A stretch of DNA of 64,000 nucleotides, from the NCBI GenBank assembly GCA_043774975.1, contig JAYVSX010000149.1, positions 376-64,375 of the forward strand, given 5' to 3'. This DNA is from Rubrivivax sp. (GTDB taxonomy: Bacteria; Pseudomonadota; Gammaproteobacteria; Burkholderiales; Burkholderiaceae_C). Below, in pieces: positions 6,621-56,042 of the stretch (its first letter is position 1; each line of letters starts with the position of its first letter). The position numbers and the translations under genes are program-made. The notes below the pieces were generated by a model. The model saw only the letters and a program-made list of their open reading frames with translations. It did no database searches and was not told the DNA's origin.

Positions 6621-6713
6621 TGGCGGAGTCGAAGGGATTCGAACCCTTGATGCAGGTTTTGCCCACATACTCCCTTAGCAGGGGAGCACCTTCGGCCACT
6701 CGGTCACGACTCC
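6621..6713 (-). tRNA. tRNA-Ser(GCT)
   Basis: Minus strand reads GGAGTCG...GACCGAGTGGCCGAAGGT-CTCCCCT GCT AAGGGAG, then a long variable arm, then GGGTTCGAATCCC-TTCGACTCCGCCA. TAGAAT -10 box upstream. Confidence 0.97.
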
Positions 6714-20980: not shown

Positions 20981-22774
20981 TCACTGCTTCCAGCGCTGGC
21001 AGGCAGGGTGGCTGGAGAACTCGGCCGAGCTGCACTCTCTTTCCATGCAGACCAGGTAACGCACTCCGTCACGAGACCCACACGAGGGCCCCGGCCCAGC
21101 CGGCACGACGGCGGCAGGCGCCGGCGCAGCGCTGGGCCGTGGCGCCGGCGAATCGGTCCGCGGACGCGAACTCTCGACGGGCTTGGTGGTGACCGGGCGC
21201 CCACCGGCTCGGCCAAGTTTGTCCGCGCCTGACTCAGCCGGTATGCTTTTCAGCGGGCCCCCAGGCGCTGCGCCAATCGCGCCAGACATAACGGGCGTCG
21301 AGGTTGATGCAGTCACGGGCGGCTCTGGCGAGAGCGCACCCGATGCGGTCGGCGCTGGTGGCGTGGCCATGAAGGCCGAGGCTGCAGGCACCGAAGCCTG
21401 CGCAGCAACTGGTGTTGCCGCCAGCTCAGCAGCCGGGGCGACCGCTGATGGTTTGAAAGGGGGTTCCTCGGCCCTGGGCCAGAAGAGGAAAGCCGCAGCG
21501 CCCGCAACCGCCAACGCACCAGAAAGTACCCAGGCAAGCTTGCTTTTTGGGGGGAGCAACGTGGAGGGGTGCCGAACCTGCCCGTCCATGATTTCACCGT
21601 CGATGGCAATCGGGGCCAAGGCTTGTCCTGCACCAACCTGAGTCGAACTGGACGTAGCACCCGATGGCGTGAGCAGTTTTGACGGCTGTGGCTCCAACCA
21701 GACGTGCTCGGTGACGCTTCCCCCTGGTGTTACTCGCGCCTTGGGAACAATCTGAGTCGAGCCGTCGTCGATATCCAGGTCGATGCGACCGCTGCCGACA
21801 GGAGGAGGAAGCACGTTGGTGCGCTCCCAATGCACCACTTGGCCGTCCGGTGAACGCCGAGCCGGTGCCTTGGCTTCTCCATCCAGGACACGGCGAAGCT
21901 CGGCCACGCTCTGAGGGCGGTCAAGCGGGCGCGGGCAAAGCATCCAGTCGATGGTCTGCAAAAAGACTTCCGTACAACCCGGTACCTGTTCGGGTGTGAG
22001 GTGCGAAGCTTCGTCGTGGACGGTGCGAGCTGTGGCTGGAGACGGCGGACGACCCAGCAGCATGTAGTGCAGCGTAGCGCCCAACGCGTAAATGTCGGTC
22101 CACGGCCCCTGCCTGACCGAACCTGCCTCGCCGTACTGCTCAATCGGTGCGTAAGCGGGCTTTAGGATGGCGGTGAGCGCCTGGCTCTTGTCGCTGAGCA
22201 CCCGGCGTGCCGCGCCAAAGTCGAGCAACACCGGTCGGCCATCGGGCTCAATCTGGATGTTGTCGGGCGCAATGTCGCGGTGGTAGACATCTTCACTGTG
22301 CAGTTTCTCGATGGCGCCCAAAAGCGGCATCAGGATGTTGCGCATCCAGGTCTCATCGGGTGAGCCCGTCATCGCAGACCGAATTTCCTTGAGCGTGCGT
22401 CCGCGCAGCACCGGCATGGCCATGTACGCGGTGCCGTTGGCTTCCCAAAAGCGGTGCACCTTCAGCAGCGACGGGTGGTCAAACCGGGCCAACAACTTGG
22501 CTTCATTGACAAACGAGCGCAGACCCAAGGCAAAACTCTCGGCGTCCGAATGTGAGCGCAGCGACACGTGCATGGTCTCGGTGCGACCCGCCAGCGAAGC
22601 CGGCATGTACTCCTTGACGGCCACTTCACGTTCAAGGGCATGATCAAAAGCCAGATACACGATGCCAAAACCGCCGACCCCCAGCAGGCTGAGCAGCTCA
22701 AACTCACCCAACCTCGTGCCGGGCGGCAAAGCGCTGGGCGTATCGGTGTGGAACGAAGAGGAGTCTGAAGCCAT
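20981..22774 (-). CDS. Membrane-anchored Hanks-type Ser/Thr protein kinase with Pro-rich stalk and C-terminal 4-Cys domain
   Basis: Motifs GVGGFG, VAVKEY, HRDIAPDNI, DFG and YAPIE; TM helix LAWVLSGALAVAGAAAFLFW. Confidence 0.9.
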   Translation of the reverse strand: MASDSSSFHTDTPSALPPGTRLGEFELLSLLGVGGFGIVYLAFDHALEREVAVKEYMPASLAGRTETMHVSLRSHSDAESFALGLRSFVNEAKLLARFDHPSLLKVHRFWEANGTAYMAMPVLRGRTLKEIRSAMTGSPDETWMRNILMPLLGAIEKLHSEDVYHRDIAPDNIQIEPDGRPVLLDFGAARRVLSDKSQALTAILKPAYAPIEQYGEAGSVRQGPWTDIYALGATLHYMLLGRPPSPATARTVHDEASHLTPEQVPGCTEVFLQTIDWMLCPRPLDRPQSVAELRRVLDGEAKAPARRSPDGQVVHWERTNVLPPPVGSGRIDLDIDDGSTQIVPKARVTPGGSVTEHVWLEPQPSKLLTPSGATSSSTQVGAGQALAPIAIDGEIMDGQVRHPSTLLPPKSKLAWVLSGALAVAGAAAFLFWPRAEEPPFKPSAVAPAAELAATPVAAQASVPAASAFMATPPAPTASGALSPEPPVTASTSTPVMSGAIGAAPGGPLKSIPAESGADKLGRAGGRPVTTKPVESSRPRTDSPAPRPSAAPAPAAVVPAGPGPSCGSRDGVRYLVCMERECSSAEFSSHPACQRWKQ

Positions 22775-22877
22775 GCCTAAAGTAGCTTACCAGGGAAGGT
22801 AATCGGGGAAATCCACCTTCCAGTGCTTGCGGACAGCGCTTTTCGTGAGTTATCAGCCCTTCACCTGTGCAGCCCTT

Positions 22878-23040
22878 GCCGTGCGCTCACTCTTCATCGG
22901 GCGATCCAACCCGCTGGGCGAAGTGGAGTCGGGCACCACGGCGGCCTGGCTGGGGCCCGTGGGTTCGGTGGTCCTCGGGGGGGGTGGGCGTGTTGCTGGT
23001 GGCAGCTGCTTGGCCGCGCCTGTTCCCGGCGCTGGCCCCG
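22878..23040 (+). pseudogene. C-terminal relic of an MFS transporter
   Basis: SLFIGRSNPLGEVESGTTAAWLGPVGSVVLGG, then a frameshift at G8 (22977-22984), then VGVLLVAAAWPRLFPAL. Resembles the last two TM helices of an MFS permease. Confidence 0.6.
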
Positions 23041-23145
23041 CAATACGCCCTGCTCCCAGGCGGCACAGGTCGATCTCATCTGGCGGAATGAGTCGAGGCA
23101 CGGGCCTGGAACGCAGCGCAGGCTGAAGGGGGAAAAGCAAGGACA

Positions 23146-24228
23146 TCACCCTCGCTTGGCGACAGCGCGCAGCCGCGCGTTGCGCCCGCGGGCTTTCCAC
23201 TGCTGCACCTGCACCTTGCGCTCCAGCGCCGTGAAGGTGTCGCGCCGGGCTTCCCGCAGCAGCTTGTTGTAGTTTTTCAGCCGCTCAGGGGACACGTTGT
23301 CGCGCACCGCGCAACCGGGTTCATCTTCATGGATGCAGTCGCGAAAGCGGCATTGCTGGGCCAGCTGGGCGATGTCGCCGAAGGCTGCTCCAATCTCTGT
23401 GGCGTCGCCGTCCAGGCGAAGCGTGCGCAAGCCCGGGGTGTCGATGATGCAGGCGCCGTTGGGTAACCCATGCAGGCTGCGCGCGGTGGTGGTGTGGCGA
23501 CCTCGTCCATCATCGATGCGGTTGGCACCGGTGATGGCCACCACCCGCCCCGTCAGCGTATTGGTGAGCGTGCTCTTGCCTGTGCCGCTGGAGCCCAGCA
23601 GCACCAATGTCTGGCCCGGTTGCAACCAAGGGCTCAAGACCGCGCAGCTGATGGGATCAAGGGCATTCACCGCCACCGCTGTTGCCGCGGGCGGCAGCAG
23701 AGCCTGCACCTGTTGCAAGCGTGCACCGGTATCGACGCAAAGGTCGGCCTTGGTCAGAACCACCACGGGCAAGACACGGGCCATTTGCACCAAGGCCACA
23801 AAACGCTCCAGTCGTCGCAGGCTGAAGTCGTGATCCAGGCCCATCACCAGCAATGCCGTATCGACGTTGCTCACAATGACCACTCGGGTCACCTTGTCAC
23901 GCCCGTCATGGAGGCGTCGCGCCAGTTGGTTGACGGGCGGGACCCGCTCGTGCACCCACCACTCCTGGTGCGCGTTTTGCTGGACCAGCACCCAGTCGCC
24001 CACGGCAATCGACTCGCCATCGGCCATCATCATGGCCCGCATGGCGGGTAACAAGCGACCTGCGTGTTCGGCGCAGCCGTCGTGCAAAGTCAAGCCTTCG
24101 CGTTGAACCTCGGTCACGCGCATCAGCTCAGGCTCACTGCAAGCGGGGTGCAGGGCCACCAATTCTTGAATAACCGCCGGCGTCAGGCCAATGTTGCGCA
24201 GGCATTCGAAAGCATGTGAGTCGATCAT
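23146..24228 (-). CDS. rsgA: Ribosome small subunit-dependent GTPase A
   Basis: Circularly permuted GTPase: TKADL (G4), GSSGTGKS (G1) and DTPG (G3); Zn finger CRFRDCIHEDEPGC. Confidence 0.94.
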   Translation of the reverse strand: MIDSHAFECLRNIGLTPAVIQELVALHPACSEPELMRVTEVQREGLTLHDGCAEHAGRLLPAMRAMMMADGESIAVGDWVLVQQNAHQEWWVHERVPPVNQLARRLHDGRDKVTRVVIVSNVDTALLVMGLDHDFSLRRLERFVALVQMARVLPVVVLTKADLCVDTGARLQQVQALLPPAATAVAVNALDPISCAVLSPWLQPGQTLVLLGSSGTGKSTLTNTLTGRVVAITGANRIDDGRGRHTTTARSLHGLPNGACIIDTPGLRTLRLDGDATEIGAAFGDIAQLAQQCRFRDCIHEDEPGCAVRDNVSPERLKNYNKLLREARRDTFTALERKVQVQQWKARGRNARLRAVAKRG

Positions 24229-24295
24229 GGATGTTCCGGACAAGACAAACCATCGCGGCGCCAAGGCAACCGCATTGACCAAAGCGCAAAGCTTC

Positions 24296-24470
24296 GGTCG
24301 CGTCAGGAGATGGGGGTCTGTCGGCCGCGACCAGGGGTCACGGCAACACGGAAAACATCAAAGCAGCTGGGCTGCGATCGGGGCCCAAGGCCCAGAAAAC
24401 CGTGTGCGCGTGGTTAAAGCGCGCGAGCCGACAAGAGGGCAATATGAGTGGTTTTCATGGCGGTCCTCCT
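24296..24470 (-). promoter_or_regulatory. Putative translated attenuator-like leader of rsgA
   Basis: AGGAGG (24470-24465) before ATG 24458 (MKTTHIALLSARAL*); overlapping mini-ORFs; alternative pairings of GGTCGCGG. Confidence 0.6.
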
Positions 24471-24581
24471 GCAGTTCGGTTGATGGAAGGCTCGCAATGT
24501 GCTCCTGAGCTGCTCGGTCGTCAAGCTCTCTCTCGGTATACGTCGCGGCGGGTCCACAACCCAGCCGATATGCTGCCGACC

Positions 24582-25205
24582 ATGATCGAGTTGAATCTGA
24601 TTCATGTCGACGAAGCTTTGCTTGTGGTGAACAAGCCCGCGGGCTTGCTCTGCGTGCCTGGCAAGGGCGACGGCCGGTGGCACAACCTGACAACCGAGCT
24701 GCGCCATCAATTCCCTGAGGCGCTGGTGGTTCATCGGCTCGATCAAGCCACCTCGGGGCTAATGCTGTTCGCCCGCACGGCTGAAGCGCAACGCGGTCTG
24801 AGCATGGCGTTTGAATGTCGGCAGGTGGACAAACAGTATGTCAGTGTGGTCTGTGGCCTGATGACTGAGGAAGAAGGCGTGATCGACGCGCCACTGGCGC
24901 CAGACTGGCCACGACGACCACGCCAAAAGGTGGACTTGGAAACAGGCAAACCATCCGTCACACGCTGGCGCGTTTTGCACCGCGAGAGCAGCACCACCCG
25001 GCTGCAGCTTCTGCCCCTGACGGGGCGATCGCACCAGCTGCGGGTTCATCTGCTGTCCATCGGTCATCCCATCGTGGGCGACGAGTTGTATGGTGAGGTG
25101 TCCGCGTCAGCGCCGGGTCGCATGCTCTTGCACGCCTCCCGTCTGGGCTTGCGCCACCCCGTGACGCAAGCTGAAATGGCCTTCCACAGTGCCGCACCGT
25201 TTTGA
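24582..25205 (+). CDS. rluA: RluA-family pseudouridine synthase
   Basis: Motifs VNKPAGL, VHRLDQATSGL, TGRSHQLRVH and GHPIVGD. Confidence 0.9.
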   Translation: MIELNLIHVDEALLVVNKPAGLLCVPGKGDGRWHNLTTELRHQFPEALVVHRLDQATSGLMLFARTAEAQRGLSMAFECRQVDKQYVSVVCGLMTEEEGVIDAPLAPDWPRRPRQKVDLETGKPSVTRWRVLHRESSTTRLQLLPLTGRSHQLRVHLLSIGHPIVGDELYGEVSASAPGRMLLHASRLGLRHPVTQAEMAFHSAAPF

Positions 25206-55924: not shown

Positions 55925-56019
55925 GACGGGCCTCCCCGCATGGAAGCGCGCCCAACCGGGTCAGGTGGGGAACCAAGCAGCCCTAAGCGTTGCAACCAGT
56001 GCCGGGGGTAAGGCTCGTC
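55925..56019 (+). ncRNA. ffs: Small SRP RNA (4.5S)
   Basis: Domain IV-like GGTCAGGTGG-GGAA-CCAAGCAGCC; terminal pairing GACGGGCCT/AGGCTCGTC; TACAAT at 55912-55917; close to dnaX. Confidence 0.9.
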
Positions 56020-56042
56020 ACCCTGACTCAGGCAGCGTCGCC

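Follow-up and report, generated by a model that had tools for sequence, protein, structure and literature searches.

A conserved short-uORF leader with mutually exclusive helices, a likely ribosome-stalling attenuator of an accessory RsgA gene in Rubrivivax sp.

The DNA analysed here, referred to as the window, is a stretch of 64,000 nucleotides from Rubrivivax sp. (GCA_043774975.1, contig JAYVSX010000149.1, positions 376 to 64,375). The leader under study (24229..24470) lies between a divergent gene of the RluA family (24570-25205, plus strand) and an RsgA gene (24228-23146, minus strand), the latter being the following feature:

23146..24228, minus strand: gene for an accessory RsgA paralog of 360 aa (TIGR00157, 122 bits against a cut-off of 100; PF03193, 137 bits against a cut-off of 30)

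The encoded protein matches solved RsgA structures and has the permuted G motifs and the Cys3His zinc finger intact (TKAD, GSSGTGKS, GRHTT, DTPG and CRFRDCIHEDEPGC), motifs that are kept in 77-91 of 91 accessory proteins. Two RsgA genes of the same genome score above the TIGR00157 cut-off, and the housekeeping copy (G000:C16:1845-2597) is 30% identical to the window protein. A tree of 62 rows, obtained by a quick maximum-likelihood search with SH-aLRT values only and no bootstrap, places the window protein together with 45 further rows of the accessory type and separates them from 16 housekeeping rows (SH-aLRT 100). The gene regulated here is the accessory RsgA paralog and not the housekeeping rsgA. 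This accessory copy has a patchy distribution, being present in 22 of 36 genomes of the genus, with one further fragment, and in 13 of 300 genomes of the order (E 1e-60 or better). Its flanking genes differ between loci (70 flanking frames scanned), and the leader therefore travels with rsgA. The likely start of the RluA-family pseudouridine synthase gene (24570-25205) lies at a distance of only about 45 nt from the -35 box predicted for the leader; a neighbor of this family also occurs at three other loci (L002, L013 and L033) and is absent at most loci scanned. As a separate observation, 85 plasmid or secondary-replicon records carry RsgA (54 from Rhizobium, 6 from Vibrio and 4 from Leptolyngbya), with 35-44% identity to the window protein among the 40 matches listed.

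The 5′ part of the leader comprises a putative transcription start region and a short upstream open reading frame (uORF), as follows:

24496..24524, minus strand: predicted sigma70-type promoter, TTGACG-17 nt-CACATT (from motif conservation)
24465..24472, minus strand: R0, the strong Shine-Dalgarno sequence (SD) of the uORF, GCAGGAGG (the SD is strict in 157 of 163 leaders and reads AGGAGG in 123)
24414..24458, minus strand: uORF of 14 codons, MKTTHIALLSARAL (conserved SD and ATG; presumably translated)

Orthologous leaders were compared in two sets. The first was reduced from 110 loci to 102 with a strong match and a usable start, and to 94 after duplicates had been removed; the second consisted of 92 loci, from which 8 that were too short and 12 duplicates were taken away to leave 72. 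An SD-led uORF precedes the accessory gene in 163 of the 166 leaders (92/94 in the first set and 71/72 in the second), which bears out the SD-uORF leader proposed in an earlier, sequence-only reading of this DNA. In both misses of the first set, the available sequence ends 84 and 303 nt upstream. L115 (G063:C221) is the sole accessory rsgA that has sufficient upstream sequence and no SD-uORF; the 3′ half of its leader is apparently kept and the 5′ half replaced. By chance, an SD-ATG with a frame of 8-31 codons was encountered in 1% of 3000 random 450-nt windows, and AGGAGG-N5-9-ATG occurs 35 times on both strands of the 4.09-Mb genome. Two leaders, L080 and L099, are from Rubrivivax gelatinosus. 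No SD-uORF was found at six housekeeping rsgA loci, where the housekeeping copies sit behind an upstream gene. The motif TTGAC-N17/18-CACA(T/G)T is located 32-60 nt upstream of the uORF in 73/92 and 59/71 leaders of the two sets, vs. 0.3% of random 90-nt windows; a consensus promoter scan did not call the TTGACG-17 nt-CACATT motif.

The uORF varies in length from 8 to 31 codons with a mode of 14 (30 of 92 leaders), ends in TGA, TAG or TAA (69, 14 and 9 of 92, respectively), and follows a clade consensus of roughly M-K-T-x-D-L/I-A-L/P-L-S-A. Its codon use is narrow: Ser10 is TCG in 102/102 leaders vs. a background of 19%, Leu8 is CTC in 66/71 vs. 14%, and Ala11 is GCC or GCT in 120/127, although GCG makes up 42% of the background. 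In 6 of 60 first-set leaders that carry the core motif, this motif stands in another reading frame, and in L023, L117 and L122 it begins within the stop codon of 8-codon uORFs. Judged from these alignments, the core of the uORF is constrained as RNA and not as a peptide. Ala, Ser or Thr occupies codons 2-4 in 136 of 163 uORFs, and Asp5, whose codon use is skewed, is found in 99 (the window has His5); Asp5 may reflect a constraint on the peptide. With respect to chloramphenicol-specific sensing, the pattern at codons 2-4 and Asp5 would fit a stall in the interval predicted below (PMC9303264), but the skewed codon use of Asp5 and the His5 of the window speak against it; such sensing is at most a possibility.

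The remaining features of the leader are helices and their arms, as follows:

24422..24434, minus strand: R1, TTGTCGGCTCGCG, nt 25-37 of the uORF, the predicted sensor arm, which would pair with R3 to give the ON fold (from covariation)
24349..24359, minus strand: anti-RBS arm, GATGTTTTCCG, predicted to close over the ribosome-binding site (RBS) of rsgA as helix P1 of the OFF fold (from covariation)
24324..24344, minus strand: hairpin P2 of the OFF fold, GCCGTGAC-loop-GTCGCGGC (from covariation and pairing)
24318..24329, minus strand: R3, CGCGGCCGACAG, the switch segment, used by the ON helix (together with R1) as well as by P2 and P3 of the OFF fold (from overlap in the sequence)
24244..24322, minus strand: helix P3, formed by GACAGACC and GGTTTGTC around a C-rich stretch and a hairpin that varies between leaders (from the minimum-energy fold)
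24228..24238, minus strand: RBS of rsgA, CGGAACATCC-ATG, with a weak SD (in the OFF fold, predicted to be bound by the anti-RBS arm)

For covariation, the segments were anchored by sequence alignment alone, and the cognate pairing of each leader was scored against swapped partners in three samples, namely those 59 of the 92 leaders in which P2 can be recognised, 28 representatives with less than 70% protein identity, and 43 held-out leaders with less than 80% identity to all others; the z values are given below in this order. Kinship inflates these values, and the scale is given by the thinned sets and by eight control pairings, for which |z| did not exceed 2.4 in the same three samples. The R1:R3 helix reaches z values of -9.6, -7.9, and -9.5, hairpin P2 values of -6.5, -5.0, and -6.0, and the pairing of the anti-RBS arm with the rsgA RBS (P1) values of -8.6, -2.9, and -6.8. 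The partners in P1 change together, for example in L083 (GTGTTCGTGAG/CTCACGAACAC), L016 (GTCTGTCG/CGACAGAC) and L006 (CGTTCCGTG/CACGGAACG). Thus, R1:R3, P2, and P1 are conserved and covarying. P3 covaries weakly (-3.6, -0.3, and -1.4), as does P0, a predicted helix in which the uORF SD folds back on codons 7-10 (-0.9, -2.4, and -1.7), and no covariation was seen between the uORF and the rsgA RBS (1.7, 0.7, and -0.1 in the three samples). Pairs were also counted in a sequence-only alignment of 34 leaders picked by hand among the 92. In these, P2 is paired in 97.9% of cells and R1:R3 in 82.6%; the covariation score of R1:R3 was reached by 3 of 500 shuffles, and two-sided changes occur in 4 of its 12 pairs, no more than in the shuffles. 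The OFF fold is paired in 76.1% of cells and shows two-sided changes in 13 of 24 pairs, a number reached by 2 of 500 shuffles. The plain duplex energy of R1 with the spacer was no better than that of shuffles (mean z -0.3, and in a second run mean z -0.95 with 17 of 92 leaders below -2); duplex energy against shuffles or coding sequence is uninformative in such GC-rich RNA. The overlap read directly from the sequence means that R3 cannot sit in R1:R3 and in P2 simultaneously. P2 is recognisable in 59 of the 92 leaders, and other subtypes have no P2.

The sequence-only reading had held that alternative stems probably tie rsgA expression to ribosomes, and the covariation of the competing helices R1:R3 and P2 agrees with it in this respect. 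It had missed the key helix, in which uORF codons 9-13 pair with CGCGGCCGACAG, as well as the anti-RBS arm, the conserved promoter-like motif and the accessory nature of the gene. The elements that it had listed are all present on the minus strand: AGGAGG at 24470-24465, followed after 6 nt by ATG 24458, MKTTHIALLSARAL and CTT TAA C; an overlapping frame that ends AAQLL CTT TGA at 24363-24358 and whose stop forms a TGATG overlap with the start of MFSVLP* at 24358; a GTG 24341 frame of 13 codons including the stop (VTPGRGRQTPIS*); a +1 frame that runs from the first CTT TAA to the stop of MFSVLP at 24338; the pairing segments GGTCGCGG (24332-24325), CCGTGACC (24343-24336) and CGCGACC (24302-24296), with an anti-SD-like CATCTCCT at 24312-24305; and the weak SD of rsgA (anti-SD duplex of -3.5 kcal/mol vs. 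-10.3 kcal/mol for the uORF SD). From these it had been proposed that frameshifting at the CUU-stop and a chain of mini-ORFs report translational fidelity, termination or reinitiation, in likeness to the +1 frameshift site of prfB, where CUU likewise precedes a stop codon. Frameshifting at prfB needs an SD-like sequence just upstream of the shift site. No such sequence is adjacent to the CTT TAA of the window, the shift does not lead into rsgA, and the CUU-stop itself is confined to this one genome: CTT precedes the uORF stop in 1 of 163 leaders (1/92 in the first set, the window itself, and 0/71 in the second), and it is replaced by CGC TAA in L031, whose protein is 90% identical, and by TCC TAA in L032, these being the two closest relatives. 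A +1 shift would reach rsgA in frame in 5 of 92 leaders, CTTTGATG and the anti-SD-like CATCTCCT each occur in 1 of 92, and CGCGACC occurs in 5 of 92; an ATG in frame with the TGA of P2 is present in 21 of 105. Of the proposed stem pair, the hairpin CCGTGACC:GGTCGCGG is P2 itself and stands, whereas its alternative, GGTCGCGG with CGCGACC, does not covary (z -0.8, 105 leaders). Since the CTT-stop, CTTTGATG, CATCTCCT and CGCGACC are not conserved, the frameshift and chained-ORF arrangement is best seen as an accident of this genome, and its regulatory role is extremely improbable. The further suggestion that the leader encodes a single peptide decayed by indels was rejected because 14 codons is the commonest uORF length.

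In folding predictions, the minimum-energy fold of the window leader contains P0, P2, P3 and the anti-RBS helix (z -3.9 vs. 200 shuffles). When ribosome footprints were imposed as folding constraints, the predicted cost of opening the rsgA RBS in the window was 7.7 kcal/mol with no ribosome, 7.2 with a ribosome at codon 1, 6.0 at codon 3, and 10.1 at codon 8; forcing R1:R3 lowered this cost to 3.8 kcal/mol at a price of 6.9. The same calculation was applied to the 76 of 92 leaders that were short enough to fold. With the footprint at codon 3 in place of codon 8, the predicted opening cost was lower in 45 of these and higher in 20; among 39 held-out leaders, the corresponding numbers were 27 and 3. 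Forcing R1:R3 reduced the cost in 36 of 50 leaders and increased it in 7. Thus, the position of a ribosome on the uORF is predicted to alter RBS opening in a consistent direction and to a small extent, the median shifts being 0.8-1.3 kcal/mol. In the window, the OFF fold remains the minimum even with a footprint at the start codon; considering this and the price of 6.9 kcal/mol for R1:R3, the ON fold would need co-transcriptional folding or better energies. R1 begins at nt 25-26 of the uORF, just beyond a ribosome on codons 1-4; the toeprint of a ribosome stalled at a start codon has been reported at +16 (PMC9226507).

A feasible model would be as follows. When no ribosome is present, R1 would fold back on the SD of its own uORF, and when a ribosome passes codons 5-14, R1 would be covered; in either case R3 would form P2, and the anti-RBS arm would close over the start of rsgA. 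A ribosome held at codons 1-4, by tetracycline, spectinomycin or another cause of early arrest, would occupy the SD and leave nt 25-37 free, so that R1 could capture R3, P2 and P3 would break, and the start of rsgA would open. The rsgA mRNA that is left untranslated would be lost, probably to Rho, and the response would appear at the mRNA level. The same helices could have another trigger, in that the RBS might open whenever the uORF is not translated through, by fewer or slower ribosomes, with no ribosome required at the start codon. Opening when the uORF is not translated through is known from the whiB7/wblC leaders. Such a trigger would accord with the strength of R1:R3 relative to P0 (mean -20.8 vs. 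-15.6 kcal/mol), with the weak covariation of P0, and with the footprint at codon 8, which closes the RBS beyond the state without a ribosome in 34 leaders and has the opposite effect in 15 of 76. However, the start-codon footprint opens the RBS beyond the state without a ribosome in 31 vs. 13 of 76 leaders, and in 20 vs. 1 of 39 held-out leaders, and codons 7-8 (GCC C-C) are fixed although they lie outside the R1:R3 helix and are complementary to the uORF SD. A trigger of this kind is therefore considered unlikely, and an early stall on the uORF is preferred.

The nature of the output bears on a further alternative, in which RBS masking is a second layer and premature termination within the leader, by Rho on the C-rich spacer or by P3 with a U-rich tail, is the main output, as at vmlR. 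The 5′ part of the spacer contains more C than G in 161 of 163 leaders (41% C and 29% G) and is possibly a loading site for Rho, a terminator-like hairpin with a U-rich tail is present in 30 of 163, and the published response discussed below was recorded at the mRNA level (PMC7240160). Against this, 133 of 163 leaders, that of the window included, showed no terminator-like tail, and the best-covarying helix of the 3′ part covers the RBS itself, so that termination as the main output appears quite unlikely, if only slightly more so than the untranslated-uORF trigger. The scarcity of terminator tails, together with the C-rich spacer, leads us to infer that RBS masking with Rho polarity is the output.

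Structurally, the leader combines a conserved SD-led uORF, mutually exclusive helices of which one arm overlaps the uORF, and a covarying output helix over the RBS. We therefore regard it as a likely ribosome-stalling attenuator of the accessory rsgA, with a probability of roughly 0.6. In the attenuators of ermC, cat-86 and cmlA, a stalled ribosome covers one arm of a helix and a specific nascent peptide is needed. The present leader shares with them a leader peptide, competing helices and a masked RBS, but its arm would have to remain free of the ribosome, and what is conserved in its core is the nucleotide sequence. By analogy, the layout is likely to be that of vmlR and the output that of toiL. 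As at vmlR of Bacillus subtilis, the uORF lies within the first hairpin, a ribosome stalled at the start is predicted to free a segment for an alternative helix, and the last helix masks the SD of a regulated gene for a ribosome-binding NTPase (PMC9226507); the cplR and vga(A) leaders (cited in PMC12121999) are comparable in the same way. Unlike the present leader, that of vmlR acts mainly through an intrinsic terminator and has a uORF of three codons (PMC9226507), whereas in leaders of the window type the switch arm is part of the uORF itself, which has 8-31 codons; among those compared, a conserved terminator was not seen, the regulated gene encodes an RsgA GTPase, and there is no relation in sequence. 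The toiL-topAI system of Escherichia coli is likewise a proteobacterial uORF switch with RBS masking; it responds to tetracycline and spectinomycin, and Rho acts on its untranslated mRNA (PMC12121999), features in which a likeness is predicted here. However, toiL pairs directly with the topAI RBS, and a stall anywhere therefore induces (PMC12121999); in the window the uORF would act through an intermediate segment, and thus only an early stall is predicted to induce. The leader has no detectable sequence kinship to any Rfam family: no match in the leader region reached the gathering score, and one chance match to a snoRNA scored 16.9 of 60 bits. A tRNA (6624-6713, minus strand) and a small SRP RNA (55925-56022, plus strand) are the sole Rfam matches in the window. 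No further copy of the leader was found below E 0.02 in its own genome, nor any in the plasmid records, and no description of an rsgA leader or of a leader of its paralogs was found in the literature searched, which mostly leaves out subscription papers.

Published expression data link RsgA paralogs to translation inhibitors. In Chromobacterium violaceum ATCC 31532, CLV04_4452, annotated as "ribosome biogenesis GTPase" (COG1162), is listed in Table S1A of PMC7240160 with log2 values of -5.41 for spectinomycin and -5.67 for tetracycline (no drug vs. drug), i.e., it is up-regulated about 43- and 51-fold. It ranks second under each drug across the whole up-regulated part of that table, outside the air-modulated block, and the adjacent gene, for a DUF817 protein, is up-regulated about 12-fold (PMC7240160); neither "rsgA" nor "GTPase" occurs in the available main text of the article. 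In family f33, 12 of 20 genomes of the genus g78 carry an accessory RsgA that is 49-54% identical to the window protein; all five genomes of this genus that were tested have two RsgA genes, and four of the five have vioE. In 4 of the 12 genomes, a DUF817 gene lies 3′ of the accessory copy in the same orientation, and none of five housekeeping copies is flanked by one; it was absent beside rsgA at all 19 loci of the first order-wide draw and was found only in family f33. The g78 proteins and the window protein fall in one branch of 26 rows (SH-aLRT 99). From gene order and tree, CLV04_4452 is likely to be the accessory paralog, and the gene clade is likely to be drug-induced.

All 12 g78 leaders have an SD-led uORF (e.g., MSRDIQFQGHAG), yet the leader profile matches none of them, while it matches 5/5 leaders of the sister genus g38 and 69/71 held-out leaders. 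Moreover, the matching long-range helix is the best partner in only 3 of the 12, and folding predicts a clear opening of the RBS in only 1 of 11. For these reasons, that a leader of the window type causes the induction is something we only infer, and induction such as that of CLV04_4452 may instead arise at the promoter. These 12 leaders (L263-L274) appear to be a second subtype, with uORFs such as MSRDI... and MDRFD..., that is not detectably homologous to the window leader and apparently forms a long-range helix of its own at nt 25-36 of the uORF, in which paired changes are seen by eye. Another RsgA paralog, SCO6149 of S. coelicolor, is 68.4-fold higher in the wild type than in a wblC mutant in tetracycline and has a WblC ChIP peak (PMC7157823), and a tetracycline RNA-seq data set of S. 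meliloti contained no RsgA row among six GTPase rows.

The gene product invites a different view of the signal, namely that the leader senses immature 30S subunits or cold and not drugs, subunits that are loaded and do not proceed turning on a second maturation GTPase. The retention of all RsgA motifs and the match to solved RsgA structures suit this view, and the geometry of the leader would respond to any slow start. On the contrary, the housekeeping rsgA has no such leader, the accessory copy is as patchy as described above, and both published inductions were by antibiotics (PMC7240160 and PMC7157823), which makes this signal improbable, and clearly more so than termination as the main output. 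It is tempting to speculate, as a tentative reading with less than even odds, that the proteins of the accessory RsgA clade are inducible and act on the small subunit as counterparts of HflXr and the ARE-ABCF proteins, being GTPases that would clear or recycle drug-stalled 30S subunits or initiation complexes. Their regulators would differ by phylum, the early-stall uORF switch operating in Proteobacteria and WblC taking this role in Streptomyces. The weight of the finding lies mostly in this link of an accessory RsgA to stress from translation inhibitors. A second RsgA is widespread and appears in databases only under the name of a ribosome-biogenesis GTPase; a function that can be tested is now proposed for it. 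The leader resembles in layout those of inducible genes for ribosome protection, and RsgA paralogs are strongly up-regulated under tetracycline in two published data sets, apparently without follow-up there (PMC7240160 and PMC7157823). Should this RsgA act in the rescue of 30S subunits, it would represent a novel type of intrinsic tolerance factor among environmental bacteria. In addition, the three-way switch, for which opening is predicted only when the stall is early, could be used to report inhibitors of the initiation stage.

Some further observations concern the surroundings and relatives of the gene. In many relatives (L031:3641-5308, L002, L033, L016, L052 and L099), a convergent gene for an MFS_3 transporter lies right 3′ of rsgA; in the window, only about 370 nt (22823-23150) separate rsgA from a Ser/Thr kinase gene (20981-22774), and this interval may be a remnant. 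At L111 (954-1490, minus strand), and likewise at L112 and L113, the accessory rsgA is immediately followed by a gene for a GNAT acetyltransferase, which may be under the control of the same leader. Of 28 more distant loci in the class whose proteins are of the accessory type (37-45% identity), 15 show an SD-ATG and a short uORF of another sequence, and the leader profile matched none of the 27 that were tested. Two more leader subtypes are found in other orders, one with uORFs of the form MIVVKTFRV... (L227, L231, L232, L236 and L239) and one with MDT/IAAAGL... (L235, L240 and L248), and their layout looks the same by eye.
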